64,000 bases of DNA from Candidatus Micrarchaeota archaeon (GCA_015522475.1 WAMF01000019.1:5098-69097); one strand, 5' to 3'; shown: positions 15,263 through 64,000, numbered from the stretch's first letter. Notes: generated from the sequence alone by a model not told the origin. Numbers and translations are program-made.

Positions 15263-16435
15263 ATGGCAGAAAGAAGAAGGGTTGCTATTATAGGTGTTGG
15301 ATTCTCACGCTTCGGCGAACGATGGGACAAGGGGCTAAGAGATCTAGCCTTAGAAGCAGGCGTAAACGCTATAATGGACGCTGGCTTGAAAGGCGAGCAG
15401 ATAGATGCTGGCTACGTTGGCAACATGGGTGGCGGAGCACTTACAGGACAGGAGCACTTGGGCTCACTCCTAGCTGATTACTTAGGCTTAAACCCCATAC
15501 CCATAACACGTGTCGAAGCTGCTTGTGCCAGCGGGGGCGTAGCCTTAAGGCAGGGTTATATGGCTGTAGCTAGCGGCATGCACGATATTGTCGTCGTGGG
15601 CGGCGTGGAGAAGATGACGGATTTAAACACAGCCCAAGTCACAGAAGTGCTAGGGGGAGCAGGTGACCAAGAATGGGAGCTCTTCTTAGGAGCGACATTC
15701 CCCGCTCTTTATGCGCTCATAGCACGCGCCTATATGGAGAAGTTCGGCGCCACTGAAAAAGAGTTAGCTGCTGTAGCCGTTAAAAACCACAAACACGGCG
15801 CAATGGTGCCCTACGCCCAATACAGGCGCGAGATAAGCTTAGAGGCGGTGCTTAACAGCAAGCCCGTGGCCTCTCCCCTTAAGGTATTTGACTGCTCGCC
15901 CATAAGTGACGGTTCTGCAGCTGTTATTCTAGCGCCGCTTGACGAGGCTTATAGCTATGCAAAGGAGCCTGTGGAAATAGTGGCTAGTGCACATGCAACA
16001 GATACTATAGCACTTCACGACAGGGAAAGCCTCGTAGAGCTGAAGGCAACAAAGGTTGCTGCAGAAAAGGCCTATAAACAAGCGGGCATCTCTGCCAAAG
16101 ACATTGATGTAGCGGAAGTCCACGACTGCTTTACAATAGCTGAAATTCTAGCCATAGAAGACCTCGGCTTCTTCCCAAAAGGCGAAGGAGGTAAAGCCAC
16201 GCTTGAAGGCAGAACAACATTCGGCGGGGACGTCGTCATAAACACAAGCGGCGGCTTAAAGGCAGCGGGCCATCCTGTGGGTGCAACAGGCGTCAAACAG
16301 GCAGGAGAAATAGCCCTCCAACTAAGGGGCGACGCTGGCGAAAGGCAAGTGAAGGATGCGCGCTTCGGCCTTACGCATAACGTTGGAGGAAGCGGAGGCA
16401 CAGCTGTTGTCCATATTATGAAGAAAGTAGAGTGA
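15263..16435 (+). CDS. Archaeal acetyl-CoA acetyltransferase (thiolase)
   Basis: VEAACASG, GVEKM, DCSPISDG, EVHDCF, GHPVGATG, HNVGGSG. Leaderless ATG after TTTTTAAG. Confidence 0.95.
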   Translation: MAERRRVAIIGVGFSRFGERWDKGLRDLALEAGVNAIMDAGLKGEQIDAGYVGNMGGGALTGQEHLGSLLADYLGLNPIPITRVEAACASGGVALRQGYMAVASGMHDIVVVGGVEKMTDLNTAQVTEVLGGAGDQEWELFLGATFPALYALIARAYMEKFGATEKELAAVAVKNHKHGAMVPYAQYRREISLEAVLNSKPVASPLKVFDCSPISDGSAAVILAPLDEAYSYAKEPVEIVASAHATDTIALHDRESLVELKATKVAAEKAYKQAGISAKDIDVAEVHDCFTIAEILAIEDLGFFPKGEGGKATLEGRTTFGGDVVINTSGGLKAAGHPVGATGVKQAGEIALQLRGDAGERQVKDARFGLTHNVGGSGGTAVVHIMKKVE

Positions 16436-16686
16436 GAAGTAGCTGCCTCCGAGAGAGGAGGCGCGACGTCGACGTGAGCTCCAACAGTTGGGATGCCTGC
16501 TTGAATTAAGCCAATTAAGCCTGTTAACAGTATTGATATTAAAATGGCAGAACAAACAGTAAAAGAGAAAAAGAGGAACTAAGGCCGCGCTATAAAAGAC
16601 AAAAGAACAAAAATAAAAAAGGGATCAAAGGCCTAACAGACCTCTCCCAATTTTAAGTACTCAGTCATTGCACTCATTGTTCAGTA

Positions 16687-41211: not shown

Positions 41212-44091
41212 CTAAGAAAGCCTCTCATACTCCTCGACGACGCGGGTAAGAATATCCTTGTAGATTACAGCTGAATTGGGGAAGAAAGGCTTCTGCGAGA
41301 GCTCCTCTTTTATATCCTCTATTAACAGGTCTGGGTTGTTGACATAGGCAAACACATGCTTAATTTCGTCGATGAACTGCTAAATACTCACTGGCAGGTT
41401 TATTTTTCCTTTTTTCACCTCGGGCACAATCTCAACTTTATAGGAGTATATTGGGTTTCCCTCCTCATCAGTCACGTTAGAGCGAAGGGTAACATAGAAG
41501 ACAGCCAACCTTATCCTATTCGGATCGATGCCCTTCAGCCGAGAGTAAAGGAGTCTATAAAAGGCGAGCTGCTTAAAGTGGTCCGACTTATAATCTTTAT
41601 AATTTTTACTTGTCTTATAATCGACGAGCCAGAGGTATTCCCCCTTAAACACAGCATCGACCTTCGCCTTAAAGATTTTTACCCACTCTGGTATAGACTC
41701 GAATACATCTCTGAAAAGAGATGCTGGTGCTTCTATTTTCTCCTCAGCACTAATCTGCACAATCGACGGGTCTTCCTTCTTTAACTCAGCAACACAAGCT
41801 TCCCAATGTTTCTTCCATAGCTCTTCGTCTTCATTGGCAGGCTCTCTACCAACTCTAAAAATACTATCATAGAAATTATGAACGGCGTTCCCGAAGGATA
41901 ATGCAGAGGTTTCCTGTCCCGGCACACTTAACACAACCCTGAGGAAAATATCGGAAGCCGAACTAATCGAAGAGTAGGACATCTTAGATAAATTGGCCTT
42001 CAACCTATCGCGAATGGTATCTTTAAGCCAATTCTTTTTCTCGATACACTTGTTCAAGCTGCGAATGAGTTCATCAGCAGAGACATCGCCATTCAGATAC
42101 TTAACAGTTGTGGAAAAAGCTGTGGCATGCCTGTGATAAAAAGACTCTTCATCAGAGGTGAGAACGAGATTATCGGGAAGTTTATACTCCTTGATGCCGT
42201 CGAAAGATATGTAATCGGGAACCTTATTTTTATCTTTACCCGAGACGAGCGCATCTTCCAAAGCCACGAAGAGGACATCCTTTGGCCGTGTGAACGCCAC
42301 GTAATCCACCCTAAGTCCCTCCTCGTTTATCTCCTCTGGATTATACACATCAGGAACAAGAGTTTGGAGGATGGCCTTCTGAATAGACTCTATGGCTGCA
42401 TACCCCCTAGAACCTTTGGCTGGGAAATAAACGACAACATCAAAGGTTAAGCCCTTGGCCTTATGGGCTGTTATGACGGATACGCCTTTCTTTGCAAAGG
42501 CTCCGCCATCGGAGATATCAACAAGAGAGAGATACTCAAAGAGATTATGAATCCCCAAAACATCGTATTGCTCAAAGAACTCAACAACAGCCTCATAAAT
42601 TTTCGTGGCTGTTAGAAGCCCATCTCTACCGAAGGATACGCTGACGGGCAAGATGCGCTCTTTGAAGAGTCTGTCCAGCCCCTTATACAAAGTTTCTCTA
42701 TCCGGTTGGGAAAAATTGACGAGGTCAACCATCTCAACAAAGGGCTTGAACTCACCCCTACCCTTTATGTCTTCATAGGTAATCTTCACGTCATACCCAC
42801 CCTTATTTTTTTCTCTATTGAGAGCATAAAGGGAGAAGATTCCATGAAGATTTACGCCGGAGAAAGGAGAGGCCAAGCCGTTTATTAGCCTTGAATCATC
42901 GTCGTAGTGAAAGAGGCTATCCAAGAGAGTTAAAATACCTTCCTTAACGGTTACAGAGCCACTCTTCGGAGCAGAACAGTAATGCACTACACCGCGGGCT
43001 TCTAGAATACGAGATATCCTCTCGGCTTGGTCATTCGTTCTGGTTATGAAGGCAAGTTCCTTTCCTTTATATTTTTCCACAATGTGAAGTAAGAAGGCTT
43101 CGAGATTGTCATCGTCAGTATGTATAAAGTAAACTTCTCCACCTTCTTCCTTGGGTTGTAAGGCTTTTGCCTCCTGTATCATCTCATCATCCCGGGAATT
43201 CCGCTCCAAAAACCACGTAGAGTATTCGACGATGGCCCTCTTCGAACGATGATTTGTCGTCAGGGTATGCTTGGGATACATCTTGGAGAAGTTCTTGAAG
43301 TTGGCTAGGCTCCCACCTTGGAAGCCAAAAATGCTCTGCTTTGCATCACCGACGAGCACAAGGAATGCCTCCTTATCCTCAATACCGACGTTGGCGGCTA
43401 TCTTAGCAACCTCCGCTTCTAAAATATTGGCATCTTGGAGTTCATCGACGAACACATGGGAATAGGGGAAAACTTCCCCCCTATACTCTTCTATAAACTT
43501 CAAAAGCATGTCCGTGTAATCTATGAGATTGTGCTCGGCTTTGAACCTCTCATAGGCCTTATATATTGAAGTGAGATGGTAAAGGAGATGTTCGACGTCC
43601 TCAAAGGATGATTTCTTAGAGGATTTAGACGAGGCAGCCTTTATAGCGTGAAGGATTTCAGGCTTTTTGGTTTGAATATCATCAGGAGTTATGCCATAGC
43701 ACTTCAAGTAATCAATGAATGCCATGGTGGAACTTAATATGTCTCTTTTAAGGTAATGAGGACCATATGTGAAAGCTTTCTCCTTAACGATGAGGTCGTA
43801 TATGACAAAACGTTTAAGAGATTGAGGAATAACACTATTTTCTGCAACGTCCAAATAAGATAAGGCAAAGGAGTGGAAAGTGTGGACATTTACGAGTAGC
43901 CCTCTAGAACCATAATGGTCGTAAAGACGCTCCATGACTTCGCTCACAGTAGAGGTTGTGAAGGTTATAACGAGTATCTGGGATGGATCAGCTCCTTCCT
44001 CTAACACTTTACCTATCTTGTCGATGATTGTTTGCGTTTTACCTGTACCAGGTCCTGCTCGAATGAGCTCACCTTTCTTAGAAAGAGGCAT
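41212..44091 (-). CDS. UvrD/REP (SF1) helicase fused to a C-terminal PD-(D/E)xK nuclease; in-frame TAG at 41380-82
   Basis: AGPGTGKT, VDELQD, VGDAKQSIFGFQG, TAHKAKGL, YVAFTR, 'KVDAV...VDYKTS...QLAFY'. The frame continues 55 codons past the TAG. Confidence 0.88.
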
Positions 44092-52593: not shown

Positions 52594-55500
52594 TCATCCC
52601 CAATACTCTTTGTATAGCTTTCTCCCAAAGGAGATGAACACTATGGCCAAAAGCAACAAGAAGAGCAAAAGAGCCCAATTTGTGCCTCCAGCCTGTTCTT
52701 TGCTGGATGAAGTGCTTGGATTTTCTACACCTTGTTCCGAGAGAACGGCGTACTGCATACATGTTCTCAAGCCGTTGCAGTAATCTGATGTGCTTTTTCC
52801 GCAAACATCCTGGAAATACTTAACAGCACATGTTTCATTCTTAGCCTCTATGCATCCTTGAAGCACATCACACTTGTACTCATCTGTGCAGTCCTTTATG
52901 TGCTCTGTGAGGCACTTAAAAAATTGATCTTGGCAAGTTAGGAAAAGATGGTCATCAGAAAAAATTTTTATGGGCACATCTCCGCCAAAGTAAGAGTAAA
53001 GTTCTATGTCATAAGTACTCGTTTTATCAATGTGGAAGCGAGCTGTTCCTTTGCCAGAAAATGCAGGTATTTCAACTTTAAATGGATGAGAACCTGCTCG
53101 CTTTACTGAAAGCATACCTCCAGTCCCTTTGAAGAATCCCGAGATATCATCTATTAGTGTAAGGATGTCATTGTCAGGGCAAATCAACGAATAATTTACA
53201 TTCAGTTGGCAAGAATTAGGCAAGGAAAGAGGCTCAATCAAAGGCTGGAAGCCAAACTTGTAAAGAGAAAGATTTCCTTTTCCACCTGAAACTGCAAAAT
53301 CCACATTTCCTCTTGCATTCGTCTTGTCATCCGCTGTATAGTTGGTTCCATCTTCTTGAAGAAGCTTCAGCTCAGCAGACACCTCCGCCACAGGCTGCGA
53401 CTCATTTTCTACATGAACATGCAAGACGGTTTGACCATCTGCACAATAAGACATAGAAACATTGAATCGCGGATCATTGGGGTTGGCTATTGCAACTTTC
53501 TTTTCAATACCTGTCTTACAATCTGAGTTTAATACACCCTTGCCTAAGACAGTGTAGATGCCAGAGTGAACTTCTTTGGCTTTGCATGTTATGTTATCCA
53601 CTTGTTCATGGGCACATACAAATGCGGACTCTTCACCTGTAGGGTTCGGCACAACAGCCAGAGACAAATAAGGCTTTTTACTACCTGTGTATGTGGCTTT
53701 TAATGTGAAGTTGTAGGATGTGGCAGTAATCTTGGAAGGTAAATCGCCAAAGGAAAGTTGAAGCGCATCGCAGTTATTTTGTAATATGGATTGACCTGAA
53801 GAGGAGTTACCTGAACCTGAAGATCCCTGGCCAGGAGCTGAAAAGCCACTTCCTTTTCCACATAGGTCCACTTCTATGCCTTTTGAAGTACTGAAATAAT
53901 TTCTTTCTTCGATGTCTGGAATAACAAATGTAACGTTACCTTCATATCCCTGTCTTTCGAAAATTAAATACAAGGTAGCAGGATAGCAAGAATATAATCT
54001 CCCAAACAAGCTGTGGGGCCGATAGAGAGTAGTGCTCCCTTTTCCTGCATTATCCGTGTAGATTTCTGCAGTTACATCCCTGTAAAAACAAGAATCTTCA
54101 CGATGATTAAGAACTAATTTAACGGTAATTTTTGTGTTTGGGATGCCTTGGGATTCATTAGATACATTCAAAACGTGTACAGATATATCAATAGGATATT
54201 TATAGTGAGTAAAAAATCTATGGATTTTTACTTCTCGTCCTACTACATCATAATTTATAATGCCGAAAGGCTCACATCCCTTATCGCCCCAAATAGATGG
54301 GCCACCTCCTCCATTGTTCCCATTGCTTCCATTACCTCCCCCTCCGCTCGTGCCTCCACTGCCAGAAGCAGAGACGCCCGGGCCGGAAGGCACGCAGTTA
54401 TCACTCTCATTTACAGAAGGATTCGAAACCTCCGTTACATAAGGATATCCGTTGGCGTTTACACCTATGATAAGGGCTGTATCGCTCGCATGATAGCCTG
54501 CCTTGGCCAAATGCAAAGTAGCCTGCTCATAATCGCCGGGGTTAGGTGCGGGAATGTCTGCTATTAAGACATTTCCGCTTTCATTAGAAGTGTTTGTATA
54601 TACTTGGCCATCGGCTGTGGTAAGCCATGCTTGAGCGTTTGCTAGATGTTTGTTATTTTCATCCACAGTAAAGAAGGAGAGGTTTAATTTTGAGCCCTCT
54701 TTAAGTTTTGGCAAGGCAAAATATTCTACTGTTAGATTACAAGTTTCAGTAGAGCGACCATAATAATACGGTGAGAATCCGATGTGAACTCCAGAAGCTT
54801 TCTCTGGTTTGCATACATCCGAACTTATATAAGTTAGCTTACTATAAGGATCACGGAAAGACGCGCTCATCTCACCAATGTATGCGCATGCCACGCCTTT
54901 CAGCCAATTAGGATCTGACTGTTGAAGCTCTGCAGGATATACTTTGCATGCACCTTTCCCTTCATAAGATCCCTTTAAGAAATCAACACAGTAATCAGCT
55001 TCGCCATTATAATTTGAAAAACAGTTCTTATTATGATCCGGAAGAATTTGGCATAACTGTTGAGTGAAATATGAGTTGGATACGTCAAAGCCCATATATT
55101 CTGGAGTGTAAAAATCGGGGCCAGCATAATGGGCGTCACAGCTTTTATCTAAAGAGATCTCGCAAATACTGTTGCCTACTATTGTTCCATTGGTCTGACT
55201 CGAACAATAGAAAGATCCCCATTTAGTTTTGTGTAAAGTAGTGCACTTTGGACATATGAGATCACCGCCTACTGCCAAACCATCAGAGAGAACTCCACCA
55301 ACATTGCCACTCAAACATGCGCTGTTCCCGCTGCTTTCTCTAGGCGGCGGGCATGGTCTAGAAGGATCGCATGAGCAGACAACAATATCTTGAGCTGCGC
55401 CATAGCTGCCTTTTGTAGCTACAACGTAGTAATAACCCTCATCCACATCAGGAAAGATAGCTGAACCGTCACTGTCTGAATAGGCAGAGGTGTTTGTACC

Positions 55501-55974
55501 ATCAGGATACGTAAGATCTATATAAGCGCCAGAAACAGGTTCCTTGCCAGAGCTATCATAAACTGTTATCTCCAAGGACTGTGTTGAGCCCCGATTACAT
55601 ATTATATGTGACTGGATGACTAAAGGTTTAGCCGAAGTAGCACCAGCTGTCATGACAAGAGGCTCGGACATGCCTTTGTTGCCGTCGACATCTTCTGCCA
55701 CAACGAGCACGACGTACGCCTTTCCCACTTCCAAACCTTCAAATGTGTGCTGTATCACAACATGTTGGGTTGAGACCTGCTGCGTGTATTTATCTACTTG
55801 TTGGCCATCCAAATAGAGATAAAATGTTACGCGAGCTATATTGCTGTCTGGATCCGTAACGCTCGCATTGACAGTTATAATACCATTATTTGTTTGCTCA
55901 TCACCGTTCTGAGCAAAGATATATGGCATAAGAAGCAAGAGAAGCAAAAACACAAACACTGCTTTTCTTCTCAT
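52594..55974 (-). CDS. Large surface protein (~1126 aa) with Ig/FN3/carboxypeptidase-regulatory-like beta domains, Cys-rich segments and a C-terminal TM anchor
   Basis: Signal MRRKAVFVFLLLLLLMPYIFA, 'VSGAYIDLTYPDG...SDSDGSAIF' type repeats, G/S linkers, C-terminal 'WALLLFLLLLAIVFISFGRK'. ATGA overlap with the upstream gene. Confidence 0.85.
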   Translation of the reverse strand: MRRKAVFVFLLLLLLMPYIFAQNGDEQTNNGIITVNASVTDPDSNIARVTFYLYLDGQQVDKYTQQVSTQHVVIQHTFEGLEVGKAYVVLVVAEDVDGNKGMSEPLVMTAGATSAKPLVIQSHIICNRGSTQSLEITVYDSSGKEPVSGAYIDLTYPDGTNTSAYSDSDGSAIFPDVDEGYYYVVATKGSYGAAQDIVVCSCDPSRPCPPPRESSGNSACLSGNVGGVLSDGLAVGGDLICPKCTTLHKTKWGSFYCSSQTNGTIVGNSICEISLDKSCDAHYAGPDFYTPEYMGFDVSNSYFTQQLCQILPDHNKNCFSNYNGEADYCVDFLKGSYEGKGACKVYPAELQQSDPNWLKGVACAYIGEMSASFRDPYSKLTYISSDVCKPEKASGVHIGFSPYYYGRSTETCNLTVEYFALPKLKEGSKLNLSFFTVDENNKHLANAQAWLTTADGQVYTNTSNESGNVLIADIPAPNPGDYEQATLHLAKAGYHASDTALIIGVNANGYPYVTEVSNPSVNESDNCVPSGPGVSASGSGGTSGGGGNGSNGNNGGGGPSIWGDKGCEPFGIINYDVVGREVKIHRFFTHYKYPIDISVHVLNVSNESQGIPNTKITVKLVLNHREDSCFYRDVTAEIYTDNAGKGSTTLYRPHSLFGRLYSCYPATLYLIFERQGYEGNVTFVIPDIEERNYFSTSKGIEVDLCGKGSGFSAPGQGSSGSGNSSSGQSILQNNCDALQLSFGDLPSKITATSYNFTLKATYTGSKKPYLSLAVVPNPTGEESAFVCAHEQVDNITCKAKEVHSGIYTVLGKGVLNSDCKTGIEKKVAIANPNDPRFNVSMSYCADGQTVLHVHVENESQPVAEVSAELKLLQEDGTNYTADDKTNARGNVDFAVSGGKGNLSLYKFGFQPLIEPLSLPNSCQLNVNYSLICPDNDILTLIDDISGFFKGTGGMLSVKRAGSHPFKVEIPAFSGKGTARFHIDKTSTYDIELYSYFGGDVPIKIFSDDHLFLTCQDQFFKCLTEHIKDCTDEYKCDVLQGCIEAKNETCAVKYFQDVCGKSTSDYCNGLRTCMQYAVLSEQGVENPSTSSSKEQAGGTNWALLLFLLLLAIVFISFGRKLYKEYWG

Positions 55975-58900
55975 CCACCTCCACCTCCTGAGGAACCTTG
56001 CCCTTGAGAAGAGCTCGTTGTGACACACTTATTGTCTCGGACAGAGCCACCCCTTTCTTCGCAAACAGTTGCAAAGGCCTTTGCATCATAGTAACATTTA
56101 TTGCCGCTCAGCAAGTCAGCTATATTTTCTGTTCCATCTGAGTCGCCACTTGCCGTGCCAGTCAAAACATTAGGTGTAAGCCAATAATTAGCGCATATCT
56201 CCTCGTTTGTTGCTGATTGGGTATAATAAGCGGTGTCATTCTTCTGACAATATGTATTGGGAATTGTCTTGCTTTCAGCAGGCTCGACTACAGCAGAAGC
56301 ATTGAAGCAGATGCCATTGCAAAGCACATAGCCTGAGTTGCCATCTCTGCCTTCACAGAATTGCTCTGTTCCCACATCAATGGAAGCATTGAAGCAACTT
56401 GTATCAGAGCTGTAATCGCAGCTTGCATCAACTGGCTGGCCAGCAACAAGATTCTTAGACGGCGTTTCTATTACAACAACAGGAGGCTTTCCGCCCTTGC
56501 TTTTCTCCTCTGTATACCCGCCTTTTGTGCAAAGCAGATCTTCCTGTGTCTCTGTCGTATGCTTATCATAACAAACACCATTCGGCGCAACAAAGCCACC
56601 TCTTTCTTCGCAAAGCTCTGTGAAGTTCTTGGCGTTGTAGTAGCAAGAGCCACCATCAAGCAATCCAGGTATGTCCAAAGTTCCATCTTCACTGCCATCC
56701 GAGTTACCTGTAAGAACATGGGGTGTTTTCCAATCATTTTGACAGATGGTTTGATTAGAAGACAATTCAGTGTATAGATAATAGGTGTCGTCTTCTTGAT
56801 TGACACAACCACTTGCTGCATTAGAAAGATCTGTGATATATCTATTTAGCAACTCGTCATATGAATGATAGGTCGTACAATCATGAGTATAATAAGAGAT
56901 CAGTGCAATATGAAAATGGTTAACACATTCATCGCAGTTACTATCCCAAAAACAACTACCAGATAAATCTTTTTCAGTACTACTGCAGCGAGCATCGCCC
57001 GATTTGCTCCCATTCCAATCATAATTATAATGCTCACAGAGAAGTTGGTAATTTGATACGTCGTTTATTTGCAGTGTCCCAGCACATGCAAGTAATCCTG
57101 TATGACAATGGGGTTCGCAAAGTATACCTCCATATGAATAATTCTCATCTCTACACAACTGTTCCCAGTTCAACAGATATGACTGCTGTCCATAACAATT
57201 CCCTCCACAGATATAATCAGGAACTTCTCCATCTGATCCCTTGCAAAACTGCGCCGTTCCAGTAGAAACAGAGTTCTTAAAGCAGCTTGTGTTAGAGCTG
57301 TAATCGCAGCTTGCGTCTATAGTTTTATAGTAGCAAAGGCCACTGCTTTCATTGAACCAACCACCCTGATCTTCACAACGCTTCTTAGCTGGATAGCTCT
57401 CGTTCATCGTATATTCACACGCTTTATCAACAATGTAGCAGCGGAAGTTCTCTAGACTCTGCCCTGTTATCTCCTGAATACGCTGGAGGGTCATGGGCTC
57501 TTTGAAGCAAGGTTGCTTTTTCGTCTTGTTCTGCATAGCTATAGGCATCTCACCAAGAGGTTCATATTGGGGCATGAGGTCATATGTATAAACGTAATCT
57601 AGGATAGGATATGTACAAACGTACTTTGTAACATTTGTTGTCTCGTTTATAGGAATCTGTTTTTCCGAGCAGTTTATTGCTTCTGGATACTTGTTCATAA
57701 AGGGCTGAAGAAGCGCCTTATCGGGGCCAACTGAAGTCTGTAGACCAGGATACTCCTGCTCAAGCTGAGCCCTGTAAAACCTATCAATATACTGAAGGAG
57801 ATCAAGAGGTGGATTCGTTAAAATACCGCAATCGTTAGTTTCATTCTCCGGCGTAGGATCGCAAATAGCGAAGCCTGTTGTATTACCAGCAACACATATG
57901 GACATGCCAGAGTCCTTTGACACAGAAGCTACAACAGGAGCAAACACGTCATAAACGCTCGTTGTAGAGAACTTTGCTGCTATGGATTGCGGAGACATAG
58001 TTGTTAACACTGGATGTCCCTTCTTATCCAATGAGTAGCAAATAATGGAATGGTTAGTTTCATTGAACCAGGTGGGCGAGGTACATAGAGAACTAGGCAT
58101 AAGTGTCGACTGCACTTTATTGAACATGTTTATAGGTGTCTCATTTGTGCCATAGGGCTTAGGCACAACAGATTTTTTGAAAAGGGCATAAGTAATGTGT
58201 CTTCCAGAAAGTGCATCAAACATAGGCCCATAACCACAGAAGTTGTCTTCCATCTTCGTTAAGTCGCCCTTAAGGATAAGGCCTGCAATACCCATATTTG
58301 TAAGATTAGCTCTATATTCGCGTGCGAAAATAGTGGCGTTGAAAGGATTGCTAAATAGCGGGCTATTAACATCAACATCTACTAGAGAGGGAAAGCCAAG
58401 AGAACGGCCGCCTTCTGCAGTAGTAATTAATGTGGTTAGAGCATCCGTAAAGTTAGAGCTTAAGCTTAGAGTATTCGAAGAATTGTAGAGCAATGTGGGA
58501 ATTTCTCCAGACTGCACCACTTTAGGCAGATTAGTTAAGCTCGTTATGAGCATACACTCAGGACAGTTTTGGGCAGCAGTTTTAACTTGAGCTCCATTCT
58601 CAACATATATACCCGTTGGCCCGCCGCGTAGATGTATTGTGTTCTTCAATTCAGAATCCACTTTGCTTTCATCAACTATGGGCAGAACACTTTGGTCAAG
58701 TAAGTGTTGAATAACATAGGATGTTCCACTGTTATAACTAGAGCTTGTGAAATGAGCGGTGTTGAGCTTGCTGCAACCTTCGCAAGCCCCCACATCAACA
58801 CGAACAAGGTTGCCATCACCGTCAACAAGACAATCGCCCAAAGCAGAATAATTGCCAAGCCCGGGCACAGTAATCTTCGCCTCGTCGTAAGGATAATCTA

Positions 58901-61900
58901 TAACAAGCATAGCCAGCGCAAACTCTTCGCATGTGCCAGTTCCATCATTGGATTTTTTCATGCACCAATCGTTTAATGAGAGTGTGGTGCAGGGATACTT
59001 GTAAACCATTAGCTGCGCGTCATTACCCACAACATCATTCCACAATGTGCTACTCCCCCACTCTGTATCTAAGAAGCTAGATAAAAAGTCTCTCAACTCA
59101 CTGTTAAGTCCAGGCTCCTCTAAAGTTTTTGCAATGTCTATATATCTATGCATGGCCAAAAAGTAAGGGTTTACACAATAATAGACATTAACAGTATAGT
59201 CATGCACACCCGCTGCCTTCATCCAATCAGGGATTGACCCAGAGTAGTATTTACCTTGCCATCCATTTATTGTAGGAAGATAGATCTCGTGAGGAAATTT
59301 GTCTAAACGGCAGGCTTTAAAAAGCTTATAATTATTGGACCATGTATCTCCTTCAAGCCTTTCTTCAATACTATCAGCGCTTCCAGCAAACGCCCAAAGA
59401 GAACCGGAAGGATCGCCTTGCGGTCTCAAAGGAAACGCTACACCGCTCACAAGAGAAGAAGGTGGCAAATACGTAAACTGTGGATATATAGGATGAAGAG
59501 GACCGTTGGGATTGTTGGAAGAGTAGCCCAGACTATCATTATACAGTATCATGAAACGTGCGACGGGTGACTCATCTATCTTATAGCTGCACTGAACACC
59601 AGAAATATCTCTATTAGCTTCACATCTCCCCTCACACGACGACCCTGTATTACTATTTACACTACATACCTTCACACGCTTATGAAAGCATGGAACATAT
59701 CCGCATATATCTGGAATGTATGCTCTTTCATATATACCATACTCTTCTCCATCAGATGAGATGCCTGTGAATGCAAGAGGAGTCACAACCCACTTAGAGG
59801 AGATACCTACTGGGACGAACCTCTTTACACTGATTTTGTTTCCATCCGAGCCACTCCAATCAATCCAACCACTGCTGTTGAAGTCAAACATGGAGGGAAA
59901 AATGAGATCTTTTAAAAAGAGAGAATTTGACCCTCCTATTGAGCGACTTGCTAGGTCTGTATTTGGAACCAGGGGGGTAAAATCTAGCACATAAATCGGA
60001 AGACTTTGTGTCATGGGCCAAGAAACTTTATTATCTTTAATCTTAGAGTAGATTTTCCAATACATTGGGCCCCCGCTATTATATAAATTTCCTCCACACA
60101 AACACCCTAGAGATTCAGTAGGCAAAGCATAGTTGCTACTAATAGGTGATTGTGAAGTAAGAAGAGACCCATAGAGATCAAAAGCTATTACTTTCACAGG
60201 TTCATTCTGCATAGCACTGTCAGCATCATCACCTAACTTAAGAGCGCACGTATCAGCTCCTCCATCAGCTCGTACAGGAAATCCGTCTGGATCCATAAAA
60301 ATAGGTCTCAATGATCCAAAGTAACATGAATCAAGGGTCTGCCATGAGCTATCTGAAAAATCGGGCACCTCATCTTTAGAAATGTCCTTAGAGAGATATT
60401 CAATAGTGAATTTTGGCTGGGCAACCCCTGTATAGGAGATACCTCTTGGTGGTGTAATTACACCTCTTACATAATAAGCCTTTGCAGTAATATCCCCTAC
60501 AGTTGTATCTTTTGTCGCATCCTCGATAGAATCCAAATATGAGCTTGTAGAAGATGTTGTAGAAGATGTATCGTACCATTTACCCTCCTTATAGTTATAA
60601 TAAGTAAGATCACAGTTGTAAGAAGCGTCCTTACATGATTTGCCTCCTGAATAAGGTAAGAAGTAATAAGTATACGAGCTCCCACCAGCAGTTAAAGTAA
60701 AGTGACTCGGGGTTGTTGGGCTGTCGAGTTTATATCGTATCCCATTGTGAAAAGAAAGACCTGACTCGCGGCCACCGATAAAGAATGTAATCGTGTAGCT
60801 CACTTTATAACGCTTTGAGCAGCCAGAAGCGGAGCACTTATCACATTTCTCATTATTACCTTTATAGCATCCAATATACTCTGTGGTCTTGGCACCTACA
60901 TTAGCCAATTTGTTCTCAAGAGACTCTCTGTCATTATCAGTAAGGTACGAATCTGATCCAGAAAAAGAAATATATGTGCCATAAAATGTGAGCTCTGGAC
61001 TGCCGTATTGCTCCACACGTTCCTGCTCGCACCTCTGATTAAGAAGGGAATAAGGCGCAGGAATAAAACCATTTATATCATAGTCTTGGAGAGGGAAAAG
61101 GAATACATAATCTTGAGAAATCTTGCTGGGCTTTACAAAGAGCCCTCCTTTGGTGCTCGGCTTATCTTGTAGGGAACTGTAGGAGATCCCATCGATACTG
61201 CCTCCATACAACTTCCCTTCTACTGCCAAAGTATCTGGATCTATAGGTGGACCTAAAATTGCGTAACCTTTTAAGTTTACAATGGACTCATCTTTTGGGA
61301 ACGTGTTTTTGTCAGTTAGTTGTGCATCTGCTACTGTAGCAACAACACCCCGCTTGATTCCATTGACCTCTGCAGTCAAAAACTTTGTTTTTACCTTATC
61401 AGAGCTGTCATAATTACACTCATCAAATGTATAAGCGGTTATATTTGTATATTTACCAACATCCAACCCCCATCCAGGATATCTTGTAGGTATGTAACCA
61501 CTCGACTTTTCCCATGGAAGGGGAAGTAGAGCCAACTTGAAGTCTGTAGAGAAGCGGTTATAACTACAAGGACTATATGGAGCGAGTGGCAGATAGGACA
61601 ACACATAAGAGTTACCTGATTTATCCTTATTTTCGCCCAAGAGAACAAGAGGATGTTGAGGAGAAGTCTCTTTTATATTAGAATGCTTTTCACTATGAGT
61701 CCAACTACTAATCGATGGTGTTAAAGGATATCCACTATCATCTATAGAGAAAATAAAAGTGGATGAACACGTGCCGCTGACATGAGGCCAGTTATAGGTA
61801 TGTGTAGCATTGACTTTAAAAGTTATACTATAGCTCTCTTGCACAATATCTAGTGTAGAGACACTCCAAGCATCCACAATCTTCTTCTTATTCTTTCTCT

Positions 61901-63563
61901 CATAGTAGGTTGTATAAACAGGTGTAAAAGCATCTGCATTTTTTGCTCTAGCACGCATGTTCATGACCTCAAAATAAGGAGTATATATAAGATCTCGAGC
62001 TGAGGAACCAAATCTTCGTGTCTTAAGCTTCATACACCCATATTTAGAGTTTCTAGCATCGCTTTCCCAACCTTCTTTTGTGGTCCAGATTTCAGAAGAA
62101 ATAGATTCTTTTTTGAAGTTGGTTGGGCAGTGCACTCCAGAGTCATCGTAAAAGCAACCACAGTCTATCGTATCTTGCAAAAGTTCTTTTGGAAGGGTTA
62201 CTGTTCCAGCTAAAGAGCCTGCAGAAACAGTGGCCAGCTTATTAAGATTAACATTTCCGGCATGATATATGCTCATAAGGCTGTAAAGCCCTGAGGCCTT
62301 TACGCACGTGCTTCTAGCATGAAAGTGCGTCGTGCACCATCCAGACAAACATTGATCATTAGCAACACACTCAAAAGGCAGCATAGAAAACCTAAAAACG
62401 CCGTTGTCAAAGCTGCCCGTGTAGTTAAAATCTGGATGGGCCAAAAGCTTATTTGTTGTCTCATTGCCGATTTCTTCCGTCATGTGTATATAGCCACTGG
62501 GATAATCCAATATAATCTTTGAAAGAGCTGCCCCGCTGAGCTTTGGCCTAGCATATGTGCAAACATCCTCAGAGGGCAAAACATACGTGGTTTTCTTAAT
62601 TTTGTTGTTATCACCACAAGAGAGCTCACAGTCTATGTACCTAGAAAAAAGCTTGCCTTTGTTATAACCTTCTGTACAGTTGTATAGGTAAACCGAAGTG
62701 GGACTAAATTTTGCAGAAGATAAATTTACTAAAGTTTGGGAAGAAACGTTCCATTGCACAACACGGCACACATAGGGCTGTTTAAAGTTGTATAGATAGA
62801 AAGCATCCACATAACCTGCCGGATTTATAGAGCATTGTGTTGACGAAAGAGGAAAATAATTGCTGAACTGAGAGAAGGCAGCATAATTAGACACTTCCAC
62901 ACCAATTCTAAAAGGCAGGATTTTGACTTTTGGATTTGTAATGTAGGCATAGTTCTCTTTAGAGACCTCGTAAAGCTTACATGCCTTACCTAACAAAGAA
63001 TAAGCAGCAGAGACACCACTTACGCTTATCTTTGGAGCTAACTTAACATTCTTCAACTCTGCTAAACTAACGTTCCTTATTTGAGCTTCTCCCAAATCCC
63101 CTGCTGTTACAGGCACTTCCTTCCTGTTCGTAAGGCGCTTGTACAAATCGCTTGAGCAAGCAACCACTCTGCAGCCTTCTCCACACACTTTGCATGGCTC
63201 TCCTTGTGAACAGATATATGTCTCATTAACATTTGTGTAAACCTTACCACTACTCTTGTTAACTATTGTTAGGTTGCAAAGCCAATAGTTCTCTTGTGTC
63301 TGCTGATTCTCTACATACCAACAAAGATTTTTGGAGGGATCTGAAGAAAGCTGGAGTTGGCTTTTCACGCTAGAAGAAAGCTCGGACTTTATCTGCATGC
63401 TTTTACAGTAAGTGTGATTAACACCCCCCACAGTATAGTTATCCATTGTGTTACAACATGCACTAAAAGAAGGGCCAGATTCAGCTTTGGCTCTGCCATA
63501 GCAACCAGCTAAGAAAAGCAACACAAACAACAGCACAATAACTGTAAACCAAACCTTCTTCAT
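55971..63563 (-). CDS. Giant (2530 aa) Cys-rich predicted lipoprotein
   Basis: Uninterrupted 7.6-kb ORF. Lipobox MKKVWFTVIVLLFVLLFLAG-C. Many Cys clusters and NxS/T sequons. Internal C-terminal duplication. Confidence 0.9.
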   Translation of the reverse strand: MKKVWFTVIVLLFVLLFLAGCYGRAKAESGPSFSACCNTMDNYTVGGVNHTYCKSMQIKSELSSSVKSQLQLSSDPSKNLCWYVENQQTQENYWLCNLTIVNKSSGKVYTNVNETYICSQGEPCKVCGEGCRVVACSSDLYKRLTNRKEVPVTAGDLGEAQIRNVSLAELKNVKLAPKISVSGVSAAYSLLGKACKLYEVSKENYAYITNPKVKILPFRIGVEVSNYAAFSQFSNYFPLSSTQCSINPAGYVDAFYLYNFKQPYVCRVVQWNVSSQTLVNLSSAKFSPTSVYLYNCTEGYNKGKLFSRYIDCELSCGDNNKIKKTTYVLPSEDVCTYARPKLSGAALSKIILDYPSGYIHMTEEIGNETTNKLLAHPDFNYTGSFDNGVFRFSMLPFECVANDQCLSGWCTTHFHARSTCVKASGLYSLMSIYHAGNVNLNKLATVSAGSLAGTVTLPKELLQDTIDCGCFYDDSGVHCPTNFKKESISSEIWTTKEGWESDARNSKYGCMKLKTRRFGSSARDLIYTPYFEVMNMRARAKNADAFTPVYTTYYERKNKKKIVDAWSVSTLDIVQESYSITFKVNATHTYNWPHVSGTCSSTFIFSIDDSGYPLTPSISSWTHSEKHSNIKETSPQHPLVLLGENKDKSGNSYVLSYLPLAPYSPCSYNRFSTDFKLALLPLPWEKSSGYIPTRYPGWGLDVGKYTNITAYTFDECNYDSSDKVKTKFLTAEVNGIKRGVVATVADAQLTDKNTFPKDESIVNLKGYAILGPPIDPDTLAVEGKLYGGSIDGISYSSLQDKPSTKGGLFVKPSKISQDYVFLFPLQDYDINGFIPAPYSLLNQRCEQERVEQYGSPELTFYGTYISFSGSDSYLTDNDRESLENKLANVGAKTTEYIGCYKGNNEKCDKCSASGCSKRYKVSYTITFFIGGRESGLSFHNGIRYKLDSPTTPSHFTLTAGGSSYTYYFLPYSGGKSCKDASYNCDLTYYNYKEGKWYDTSSTTSSTSSYLDSIEDATKDTTVGDITAKAYYVRGVITPPRGISYTGVAQPKFTIEYLSKDISKDEVPDFSDSSWQTLDSCYFGSLRPIFMDPDGFPVRADGGADTCALKLGDDADSAMQNEPVKVIAFDLYGSLLTSQSPISSNYALPTESLGCLCGGNLYNSGGPMYWKIYSKIKDNKVSWPMTQSLPIYVLDFTPLVPNTDLASRSIGGSNSLFLKDLIFPSMFDFNSSGWIDWSGSDGNKISVKRFVPVGISSKWVVTPLAFTGISSDGEEYGIYERAYIPDICGYVPCFHKRVKVCSVNSNTGSSCEGRCEANRDISGVQCSYKIDESPVARFMILYNDSLGYSSNNPNGPLHPIYPQFTYLPPSSLVSGVAFPLRPQGDPSGSLWAFAGSADSIEERLEGDTWSNNYKLFKACRLDKFPHEIYLPTINGWQGKYYSGSIPDWMKAAGVHDYTVNVYYCVNPYFLAMHRYIDIAKTLEEPGLNSELRDFLSSFLDTEWGSSTLWNDVVGNDAQLMVYKYPCTTLSLNDWCMKKSNDGTGTCEEFALAMLVIDYPYDEAKITVPGLGNYSALGDCLVDGDGNLVRVDVGACEGCSKLNTAHFTSSSYNSGTSYVIQHLLDQSVLPIVDESKVDSELKNTIHLRGGPTGIYVENGAQVKTAAQNCPECMLITSLTNLPKVVQSGEIPTLLYNSSNTLSLSSNFTDALTTLITTAEGGRSLGFPSLVDVDVNSPLFSNPFNATIFAREYRANLTNMGIAGLILKGDLTKMEDNFCGYGPMFDALSGRHITYALFKKSVVPKPYGTNETPINMFNKVQSTLMPSSLCTSPTWFNETNHSIICYSLDKKGHPVLTTMSPQSIAAKFSTTSVYDVFAPVVASVSKDSGMSICVAGNTTGFAICDPTPENETNDCGILTNPPLDLLQYIDRFYRAQLEQEYPGLQTSVGPDKALLQPFMNKYPEAINCSEKQIPINETTNVTKYVCTYPILDYVYTYDLMPQYEPLGEMPIAMQNKTKKQPCFKEPMTLQRIQEITGQSLENFRCYIVDKACEYTMNESYPAKKRCEDQGGWFNESSGLCYYKTIDASCDYSSNTSCFKNSVSTGTAQFCKGSDGEVPDYICGGNCYGQQSYLLNWEQLCRDENYSYGGILCEPHCHTGLLACAGTLQINDVSNYQLLCEHYNYDWNGSKSGDARCSSTEKDLSGSCFWDSNCDECVNHFHIALISYYTHDCTTYHSYDELLNRYITDLSNAASGCVNQEDDTYYLYTELSSNQTICQNDWKTPHVLTGNSDGSEDGTLDIPGLLDGGSCYYNAKNFTELCEERGGFVAPNGVCYDKHTTETQEDLLCTKGGYTEEKSKGGKPPVVVIETPSKNLVAGQPVDASCDYSSDTSCFNASIDVGTEQFCEGRDGNSGYVLCNGICFNASAVVEPAESKTIPNTYCQKNDTAYYTQSATNEEICANYWLTPNVLTGTASGDSDGTENIADLLSGNKCYYDAKAFATVCEERGGSVRDNKCVTTSSSQGQGSSGGGGG
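56030..57390 (-). repeat. Internal duplication of Cys-rich modules in the giant protein
   Basis: DASCDYSSNTSCF vs DASCDYSSDTSCF (shared 21-mer AGAGCTGTAATCGCAGCTTGC near 57295 and 56406). ICxNxWxTPxVLTG...CYYxAK.F..xCEERGG occurs twice. Confidence 0.85.
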
Positions 63564-64000
63564 ATGAAACCTCCTAGCTTGCGAAGCATGACACTGCCCA
63601 GCATGCCCCTAGTCAATATAAGGTATGTGTGGTATATGAATAAAAAGGTTACTGCAAGAGCGACGCCATGTCGTATTAAGAAATTGAAATATAAATCATT
63701 AAGGAATTGGAGGAGATTGCTATCGCTAACAAGTATTTTGGTGGCTGCGCTTGGAGAAGAAGCACTTGTTTGCTGAACAGCTTGAACTGTGGCTTTACTG
63801 TATGTGATGTATGAAGAGGGAAATGTCGATATGCCACACCACCTAGCAGAAGCTATATTCAAAACAGTACTGCTTTTCAATAGGGCGCTTATATCTATGC
63901 GAGGCGAGACTAAGAACGCTTGGTACGTAACGGGATAAACATAGTATGCTCCAAGGGCTATTGTAATCATAGCAGCACCCGCAGGCCGCGTAATGTCAAA
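63560..64000 (-). CDS. Membrane protein, CedA/VirB6-like C-terminal part (5' end outside window)
   Basis: Frame is open to the window edge: 'FDITRPAGAAMITIALGAYYVYP' then a second TM ending 'LTRGMLG'. ATGA overlap with the giant gene. Confidence 0.55.
   Translation of the reverse strand, partial: FDITRPAGAAMITIALGAYYVYPVTYQAFLVSPRIDISALLKSSTVLNIASARWCGISTFPSSYITYSKATVQAVQQTSASSPSAATKILVSDSNLLQFLNDLYFNFLIRHGVALAVTFLFIYHTYLILTRGMLGSVMLRKLGGFI

Follow-up and report, generated by a model that had tools for sequence, protein, structure and literature searches.

Which apparatus, if any, do the three overlapping genes at the end of this stretch of micrarchaeal DNA serve? The window, by which we mean the whole stretch of 64,000 nucleotides that was analysed (GCA_015522475.1 WAMF01000019.1:5098-69097; G000:C19:5098-69097 in our numbering of genomes and contigs), closes with three genes on the minus strand (positions 52594 to 64000), of which gene 1 encodes a membrane protein and is present only in its 3' part, while genes 2 and 3 encode two giant surface proteins. 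Judged by sequence and gene order, this trio is the distal end of a larger locus that was broken in the assembly; we refer to its row of six paralogous membrane-protein genes as array a, and gene 1 is the sixth member of that row. The reading that we favour, and to which we give slightly better than even credence, is that the locus specifies an apparatus resembling a type IV secretion system (T4SS), with a channel made of the six paralogues, a VirB4-like motor encoded elsewhere in the genome, and the giant proteins as its host-contacting exterior.

The window derives from an archaeal genome of 0.91 Mb (23 contigs, 88% complete) whose nearest sampled relative carries the NCBI name Candidatus Anstonellales archaeon; the Anstonellales are an order within the Microcaldota (= Micrarchaeota) of the DPANN kingdom Nanobdellati. 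Micrarchaeota, like other DPANN archaea, are host-dependent, and the molecular interface of this dependence is a gap in the field. The favoured reading would tie three unannotated kinds of genes, namely the six-gene row, a VirB4/CedB-like motor operon and the lineage-specific giants, into one testable candidate apparatus. In the literature searched, from which subscription journals and supplements were left aside, we found no description of the array in Micrarchaeota or of its link to an ATPase.

The first-pass annotation, made from the window alone, had described three minus-strand genes joined by ATGA stop/start overlaps, and both the calling of open reading frames (ORFs) and a direct reading of the junctions bear this out. 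Gene 1 occupies 63560..64000 (minus strand; its ORF is open at the 5' end, and 146 of the 181 assembled residues lie inside the window), gene 2 occupies 55971..63563 (minus strand; a secreted protein of 2530 amino acids) and gene 3 occupies 52594..55974 (minus strand; 1126 amino acids when read from an ATG, 1144 when read from an upstream GTG). The ATGA overlaps lie at 63560..63563 between genes 1 and 2 and at 55971..55974 between genes 2 and 3, and each has a GGAGG-type site ahead of it on the same strand. At the first junction this is a GGAGGT ribosome-binding-like site within the end of gene 1 (63569..63574), 5 nucleotides upstream of the gene 2 ATG. At the second, two overlapping GGAGGTGG sites (55975..55988; 55988-55981 and 55982-55975) also code for the terminal glycine run of gene 2, so that the idea that the last glycine codons of the giant double as the Shine-Dalgarno sequence of the next gene holds as well. 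The 4-nucleotide overlap between genes 1 and 2 recurs in both same-genus genomes in which this junction is assembled, G001 (ORFs 15526-16602 and 16599 onwards) and G003 (ORFs 1791-2903 and 1-1794), and is therefore not due to chance.

Gene 1 had been taken for the first gene of an operon, which proved wrong: it is the last of a row of six. The contig stops 105 bases past the window, and the gene 1 ORF, with its 181 assembled residues, is still open there. What is assembled contains the peptides FDITRPAGAAMITIALGAYYVYP and TRPAGAAMITIALGAYYVYP, the latter as previously noted, and displays a signature of the form R..G...hG...Y.hYP (h, hydrophobic) together with a C-terminal transmembrane helix. 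A search with this fragment of 1.84 billion cluster representatives yielded 9 relatives; the three closest orthologues are 355-396 amino acids long, and it is their C-terminal halves that align to the fragment (37-51% identity). As assembled, gene 1 therefore lacks about 186 residues at its N-terminus. When a profile of the gene 1 orthologues was iterated over the ORFs of the source genome, it converged on exactly 10 paralogues: three at the end of contig C1 (367, 422 and 798+ amino acids, the last one cut), gene 1 at the end of contig C19, and six consecutive genes on contig C18. In the related genome G001, which is assembled in five contigs, the corresponding locus is intact and consists of a gene for a 1764-residue protein, six family members (in order 380, 383, 890, 361, 384 and 358 amino acids), and a 2091-residue homologue of gene 2. 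This locus is collinear with the C1 end of the source genome, followed by two genes not assembled there, followed by the C19 end. That gene 1 might be the C-terminus of the truncated 798+-residue ORF at the C1 end was considered and ruled out, as its orthologues measure only 355-396 amino acids.

A protein of 2202 amino acids without a Pfam family is encoded directly upstream of array a (G000:C1:210050-216658, plus strand; L006:8582-15190). It carries hydrophobic segments near its N-terminus, a Lys/Gly-rich stretch and, by eye, very long coiled-coil-like repeats rich in Lys, Glu and Gln; its residues 1-280 are 25% identical to the product of the divergently oriented 1764-residue gene beside the array of G001.

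The array proteins are polytopic membrane proteins, encoded as a tandem row of six paralogues, that belong to no Pfam or NCBIfam family. A profile built from a core alignment of 15 sequences, in which the signature LLPxGxxLRxFPxT[RK]xxG...P stands out, matched proteins in 178 of the 201 genomes of our phylum sample (the unpublished genomes G216 and G061 are counted in the family tally), and the R, G and P of the signature occur in at least 90% of 119 family sequences. With at most 12 candidates scored per genome, matches number mostly 12 in the order to which the window belongs and mostly 6-8 in the taxonomic families f13 and f14. We read 24 arrays, with 14 loci picked without regard to the ATPase operon discussed below; 18 of these arrays consist of six profile-positive tandem genes, two of five such genes and, within the row, a further ORF of similar size that was not scored, and four are cut by the end of a contig or of the fetched sequence. 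In a FastTree phylogeny of 134 core domains, from which gene 1 and another short fragment were dropped, the label for the position within the array changes only 13 times, compared with a minimum of 5 and a mean of 87.2 when labels are shuffled, and none of 200 shuffles gave so low a value; the six positions therefore appear to be old orthologue groups that have been kept in order. Such fixed, ordered orthologue groups are what one expects for subunits that are needed one of each.

The family appears to be specific to Micrarchaeota, as is hinted by the clusters of the ESM Atlas nearest to a family protein, which are those of Microcaldota, and by the 9 relatives that the gene 1 fragment drew from the 1.84 billion cluster representatives. 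Word-indexed homologue searches, which are nearly blind to the array and giant proteins, returned 3 proteins with the family profile. Some array members additionally possess Cys-rich ectodomains of 400-500 amino acids, for instance the 798+-residue protein of the source genome and the 890-residue protein of G001.

The six consecutive genes on C18 make up a second row in the source genome, array b. In the tree its members have close position-wise orthologues, and the members of array a sit on long branches. Array b lies at G000:C18:57848-66072 (L025:9848-18072, minus strand) and encodes proteins of 432, 344, 576, 555, 434 and 328 amino acids; four of its five junctions are overlaps of 1-41 nucleotides or gaps of less than 80 nucleotides, and the last is a gap of 176 nucleotides. 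It has no giant attached, and a PIN_5 ribonuclease gene follows downstream. In five genomes (L034, L036, L037, L038 and L043), a gene for a protein of about 910-940 amino acids (sizes are also given as about 900-940) is found beside the array, either divergent and upstream (G025, G109, G128) or on the opposite strand and overlapping a long first-position ORF (G218, G069). The N-terminus of its product looks by eye like that of a class I aminoacyl-tRNA synthetase, in which case this would be a matter of conserved synteny only. A kinship of these proteins with the 2202-residue coiled-coil protein was ruled out, since BLAST gave no match.

A contextual hint to the function of the array comes from an operon that consists of two genes of the 276-residue type, a VirB4-like ATPase gene, and genes of the 213-, 236- and 833-residue types. 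In five loci from three families (G127, G043, G106, G123 and G132), the array is contiguous and co-directional with this operon, which comes after it with tiny or no gaps on one strand; in G168 the array is followed by the first two operon genes and then by the end of the contig, and in G009 and G066 array and operon are separated by no more than about 4 kb. Counted by family, adjacency was found in 4 of 4 loci read in f15, 2 of 3 in f14 and the single one in f13, whereby the loci showing it had mostly been selected because both features shared one contig in the phylum tables. The operon-specific 833-residue protein occurs in 175 of the 201 genomes, and family by family its distribution equals that of the array proteins; both are missing from f16, f20, f22-25 and f28. 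The first-pass annotation had seen in the trio the distal end of a Ced/T4SS-like locus and proposed to look beyond it for a VirB4/HerA ATPase. This is supported in part, in that the array abuts a VirB4/CedB-like operon in other families (contiguously in the five loci); it is not supported in so far as there is no sequence link to Ced or T4SS channel proteins, no ATPase in the locus of G001, and in the source genome only an ATPase on another contig.

In the source genome, the operon is represented by a group of five genes on contig C3, inside which the first of two ATPases (525 amino acids) is encoded. Against NCBIfam this protein scores best with CedB (4.9e-22), then with the Mbov_0397 VirB4-type model from integrative and conjugative elements (ICEs; 1.6e-19) and with CedD (4.5e-18), all below the curated cut-offs; against Pfam it reaches 47.8 bits with DUF87 (cut-off 23.2) and E values of 1.4e-10 and 7.6e-09 with AAA_10 and P-loop_TraG, respectively. 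In six loci of f13-f15 (L032, L033, L048, L050, L051 and L053), an ORF of about 99 amino acids after the VirB4-like ATPase gene matches the C-terminal end of the 525-residue protein; the ATPase gene is therefore split in f13-f15 and fused in the source genome. The ATPase ORF of G043 measures 1047 amino acids.

These affinities bear on the alternative that the system transfers DNA in the manner of Ced/Ted or of conjugation, the array being a CedA/VirB6-type DNA channel and the giants mating adhesins that act within or between species. This explanation, which we regard as rather unlikely, draws on the closeness of the ATPase to the CedB, CedD and ICE-type VirB4 models and on the second ATPase at the start of C3, a VirD4/TraD-like protein of 626 amino acids (DUF87, FtsK, TrwB, TraG-D_C). 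According to PMC11868833, Ced likewise uses paralogous channels (CedA, CedE) and paralogous ATPases (CedB, CedD), and gene exchange between a Micrarchaeota relative and its host is proposed in PMC5498576. However, reading the loci revealed neither a relaxase nor an integrase nor a pilin gene that could be recognised, and the system is conserved throughout the sampled phylum and looks vertically inherited, unlike a mobile element. An interaction with the host is also the more plausible task in a reduced, obligate symbiont; one may compare the T4SS of Patescibacteria, reported in PMC12102498 to be essential for epibiotic growth. The 626-residue ATPase itself (G000:C3:1-9582; L028) is flanked by a 536+-residue ORF that runs off the start of the contig, a Peptidase_C39-like protein and a 1141-residue ORF without a family; this locus may be a further part of the same system or of a second transfer system.

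The reading of the array as a T4SS-like channel, for which the first-pass annotation had invoked a CedA/VirB6 similarity of gene 1, finds some support in structure prediction. An AlphaFold2 model based on 119 family sequences (predicted local distance difference test, pLDDT, 75.9; predicted template modelling score, pTM, 0.71) retrieved R388 VirB6 (TrwI, PDB 7o3v) as the best and Legionella DotA (PDB 9ngy) as the second best of 48,161 chains; these two were the only full-length structural matches, with modest scores. Of the structural neighbours in the ESM Atlas, the first to carry a name is a TrbL_3 cluster (TM-score 0.40, 216 residues aligned); by ESM features, a cluster with the CedA1 domain ranks 18th (score 0.87). 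The N-terminal hairpin of family proteins yields weak, sub-threshold matches to pilin models (PF04956, 5.3e-4, in P0007; PF18895, 0.016; NCBIfam Mbov_0395, 0.007, in the gene 1 orthologue of G001). PMC9905601 describes CedA and VirB6 as beginning with a pilin-like region, in keeping with N-terminal homology between VirB2 and VirB6 and between CedA1 and CedA, and the weak pilin matches would fit this picture. A pairwise complex prediction for positions 1 and 2 of array b (score 0.01, mark 0.32) counts neither way. On the strength of the models, the VirB6-like fold of the family is suggestive and not conclusive. We consider homology to VirB6/CedA to be about evenly balanced, and a VirB6-like role to be somewhat more likely than homology, because of the gene context.

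What would such a channel carry on its outer side? Gene 2 begins with a signal peptide (63501..63563, minus strand; N-terminus MKKVWFTVIVLLFVLLFLAGC) whose hydrophobic segment ends in the lipobox-like motif LAGC at Cys21. A site of the form xAGC is present in all three of the genus orthologues compared (LAGC in the source genome, FAGC in G001, SAGC in G003), and gene 2 conforms to the lipobox pattern [LVI][ASTVI][GAS]C, expected where an N-terminal hydrophobic segment ends. Gene 2 is thus a putative lipoprotein of the lipobox type. The protein contains 100 cysteines (3.95%, versus 0.83% in source-genome ORFs of at least 150 amino acids), no hydrophobic segment other than the single N-terminal one, and 39 N-x-S/T sites; the lipobox and Cys richness proposed at first sight are thereby both confirmed. 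Against Pfam it reaches no curated cut-off. Outside the three other genomes of the genus, the search for homologues gave two weak matches and nothing more, and among the genus orthologues identity amounts to 37-48% in residues 8-532, 1518-1900 and 1991-2100 with a variable middle. Within the genus-conserved block of residues 1500-2110 (57234..59066, minus strand; 37-40% identity), 18 of the 19 cysteines in columns filled in all three sequences are invariant, compared with 114 of 466 columns overall. The C-terminal part contains two copies of a Cys-rich module detected by local alignment, copy 1 in residues 2082-2328 (56580..57320, minus strand) and copy 2 in residues 2378-2511 (56031..56432, minus strand), the latter without an insert of about 150 amino acids; their alignment score of 226 contrasts with a mean of 40 (standard deviation 6.6, maximum 75) for shuffled sequences.

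The product of gene 3 likewise has a signal peptide, together with 38 cysteines, 21 N-x-S/T sites and Gly/Ser linkers. The immunoglobulin-like (Ig-like) domains and the C-terminal anchor that had been ascribed to it are borne out with one domain recognised above the Pfam cut-offs, a prealbumin-like/Ig-like domain in residues ~133-195 (151-213 of the 1144-residue form; 55390..55578, minus strand). It matches SpaA (PF17802) with 5.9e-12 and 46 bits (cut-off 23.1) and CarboxypepD_reg (PF13620) with 3.9e-11 and 43.6 bits (cut-off 32.3); Big_7 stays below its cut-off, and the remainder of the protein has no Pfam family. The hydrophobic anchor comprises residues 1094-1122 (52609..52695, minus strand) and is followed by a short basic tail. 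Over its C-terminal 330 residues, gene 3 resembles the end of a second giant of G002 (2036 amino acids, encoded after the first) with an E value of 2.7e-20 and, weakly, a convergent 1031-residue ORF 3.3 kb downstream in G001.

From these comparisons, the giants are genus-restricted and fast-evolving, which makes them natural candidates for determinants of host range; the co-conservation of the three genes, which the first-pass annotation had set as a test, thus holds within the genus but not outside it. Large Cys-rich proteins are also found near arrays of other lineages. Proteins with a signal peptide of this kind end the operon in G043 (2133 amino acids, 51 cysteines) and in G127 (861+ amino acids), and near array or operon there are proteins of 786 amino acids with 18 cysteines each in G106 and G132 (the G106 ORF without an N-terminal hydrophobic segment) and of 710 amino acids with 23 cysteines in G187. 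None of these is related to gene 2 or gene 3. The array machine thus seems to come repeatedly with a variable, Cys-rich exterior.

One might also see in gene 2 a pore former that attacks the host membrane, with a MACPF/CDC-like segment in residues 1500-2110, exported beside the array and no structural part of it. The ESM Atlas features of this segment are indeed nearest to MACPF and thiol-activated-cytolysin clusters (0.85-0.82), and the ten best named matches all belong to that family or clan. Yet the scores are under the bar of 0.9, few features are shared (103-123 of 256), recognition stays below the bar, and one third of shuffled proteins also give ten of ten named matches in one family or clan. 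Pfam found neither MACPF nor Thiol_cytolysin at E <= 10 in three orthologous segments, and a profile search of PDB sequences gave no relevant match. We therefore think it very unlikely that gene 2 acts in this way.

We suggest instead that the six paralogues together make up the membrane channel of a T4SS-like machine, in the role of VirB6/CedA. This channel would probably be hetero-oligomeric, containing each kind of subunit once, and its motor would be the VirB4-like ATPase that is encoded elsewhere in the source genome. Array a would represent a diverged, fast-evolving duplicate, whose last gene is translationally coupled to the gene of the giant lipobox protein and, through it, to that of the Ig-like anchored protein. 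The two giants, presumably disulfide-stabilised and glycosylated, would form the lineage-specific extracellular part of the machine and would contact or recognise the host cell; that they recognise the host is what we infer from their make-up and position. A bolder variant, which we hold to be distinctly unlikely, envisages a hetero-hexameric channel with one of each VirB6-like paralogue, matching the six-fold symmetry of a VirB4-type motor; the duplicated hexad together with the 2530-residue lipoprotein, maybe perforin- or cytolysin-like, would then pierce the membrane of a wall-less host to feed the symbiont. Were it true, the one-of-each hetero-hexameric channel would be a design not known from any secretion system.

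A number of observations weigh against the proposal of a T4SS-like machine with a host-contacting exterior. No sequence is common to the C1 and C19 ends, nor does any contig end overlap that of C19, so the join of array a rests on synteny, and two of its expected paralogues are not assembled in the source genome. The complete array a locus of G001 has no ATPase linked to it, and the only DUF87/HerA-type ATPases of the source genome are those on C3, apart from the arrays. Adjacency of array and ATPase operon was not seen among the loci read from the window's own order, except for the nearby placement in G009, and G168 alone shows it among the 14 loci selected independently of the operon; the co-occurrence of the array family and the 833-residue protein across families may reflect shared descent only. 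As for the giants, the gene-3-like gene of G001 is convergent and 3.3 kb away, a word-indexed search with gene 2 found only the query itself, and outside the genus nothing but weak matches to the giants turned up.

To these must be added the outcome of the searches for a relationship between the array family and VirB6/CedA. At E <= 10, Pfam gave no TrbL/VirB6 match for 10 gene 1 orthologues; TrbL (PF04610) matches nothing in the whole source genome, and TrbL_3 (PF19590) matches no family member, its only hit being 28 positions (E 0.075) of an unrelated 68-residue frame. When the 119-sequence family profile was compared by hhalign with the single TrwI sequence, the probability was 0.2, and by hmmsearch R388 TrwI scored no better against the family profile than its own window shuffles (1000 controls), of which 269 of 994 and 61 of 986 reach its score. 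The transmembrane motif R-x-x-G-A-x-h-I...Y-h-x-x-P, which the first-pass annotation had ascribed to CedA and VirB6-like proteins, is nearly invariant in the array family (R, G and P in at least 90% of the 119 sequences) but not evident in TrwI. The family signature was not found in TrwI either; a resemblance of the signature to TrwI residues ~178-200 that had been seen by eye was dropped because TrwI falls within its shuffles and hhalign gave no signal. NCBIfam returned CedE at 0.0071 on one of 15 core slices and on none of 22 full-length family members, and the CedE and mycoplasma ICE membrane-protein matches on core slices are treated as noise, because they are absent with the full-length proteins. 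An AlphaFold2 model from 10 sequences (pLDDT 61) was uninformative in structure searches: VIA-align returned only generic helical hairpins and did not reproduce the VirB6 and DotA matches; Foldseek against the PDB found nothing at E <= 0.001 with either model. The postulated similarity of gene 1 to CedA/VirB6 is thus backed by the two best structural matches of a confident model, but by no sequence match, and the poorer model does not repeat it.

A rival explanation is an envelope module unrelated to secretion. In such a module, the six proteins would form a lineage-specific complex that builds or anchors the surface layer, or else a transporter, the giants would be nothing more than surface-layer proteins or adhesins of an ordinary kind, and the adjacency to the ATPase would be synteny without functional coupling. 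The lack of sequence similarity to any T4SS component speaks for it, as does a structural match that is modest and model-dependent. In 13 of the 14 loci whose choice took no account of the operon, the array is not next to the ATPase, and a cultured Micrarchaeota relative, according to PMC5498576, devotes a sizeable share of its genome to large surface proteins. This explanation does not readily accommodate the abutting of array and ATPase genes on one strand in five loci from three families (in G168 until the contig ends), the same family-level distribution of the array family and the 833-residue protein, or the fact that the only two full-length structural matches among 48,161 chains are both channel subunits of T4SSs. 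We regard it as unlikely, with a real if minor chance of being correct, and retain the T4SS-like apparatus as our working model.

Elsewhere in the window, positions 41380-44091 (minus strand) encode a 903-residue fusion of a UvrD-type helicase and a C-terminal PD-(D/E)XK nuclease, with weak AddB/Csa1-like matches. The segment 46001-48730 has a G+C content of 0.36, compared with ~0.44 elsewhere, and contains three ORFs on the plus strand (301, 302 and 165 amino acids) without a Pfam family except for one weak peptidoglycan-binding match.

How would a T4SS-like apparatus of this make-up relate to known systems? With the VirB6/TrbL proteins (TrwI, DotA), the array proteins share the character of polytopic helical membrane proteins of ~300-400 amino acids with long helices, and the matches to TrwI and DotA cover most of the modelled chain. 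The array is found beside a VirB4-type ATPase in several lineages, and some of its members possess large extracytoplasmic extensions. The array family differs from VirB6/TrbL in having no detectable sequence similarity to it, a conserved signature of its own, and six distinct, ordered paralogues, whereas VirB6 of R388 is encoded by a single gene and forms homo-oligomers. No homologues of VirB2, B3, B5 or B8-B11 were recognised. Several VirB6-type genes in tandem, some of them with very long hydrophilic extensions, are a feature of the T4SSs of the Rickettsiales (Rickettsia, Anaplasma, Ehrlichia), where they reside in a reduced, host-dependent genome apart from the other T4SS genes, just as the array does here. 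These proteins, however, are bacterial and recognisable by TrbL/VirB6 profiles, and they come in four or five copies as opposed to the six ancient orthologue groups described above.

The Ced and Ted systems of the Thermoproteota, with a CedA/CedE or TedA channel, a CedA1 or TedC pilin and a CedB/CedD or TedB ATPase, resemble the proposed apparatus as archaeal, chromosomally encoded derivatives of T4SSs in which the channel component is present as paralogues, and the source ATPase scores best against CedB. PMC9905601 and PMC11868833 indicate that even between Ced and Ted the components are unrecognisable by plain sequence search. In contrast to these systems, the array proteins are missed by the NCBIfam Ced models and number six channel paralogues instead of one or two; they belong to another phylum with an obligate-symbiont lifestyle, giants are attached to the locus, and there is no evidence for DNA as a substrate.

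Closer in lifestyle are the Patescibacteria (candidate phyla radiation, CPR), ultra-small epibionts with reduced genomes, whose VirB4-centred machine combines a divergent VirB6 with amplified small membrane components; for one cultured strain, PMC12102498 reports that epibiotic growth requires the T4SS genes. Their system is bacterial, of the monoderm-conjugation type, and differs from ours in that curated T4SS profiles find its components but not the array proteins. Among DPANN symbionts, the SPEARE-type giants of Nanohaloarchaeota are portrayed in PMC10266531 as membrane-anchored proteins with Ig-like domains and a VirB4/TraG-like ATPase domain, for which an action on the host is proposed. 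Both cases concern a DPANN symbiont with giants that possess Ig-like domains and have a genetic link to VirB4-type ATPases; in Nanohaloarchaeota, however, giant and ATPase form one fusion protein, whereas the giants described here lack an ATPase, follow a membrane-protein array, are Cys-rich and, with gene 2 retrieving only itself, are unrelated in sequence.

What appears to be new, against this background, is the combination of a multiplied channel family and lineage-specific giants on a T4SS/Ced-like apparatus: none of the compared systems has six fixed channel paralogues or this family, and a set of six such paralogues instead of a single VirB6 gene would give machines of this type a new architecture.

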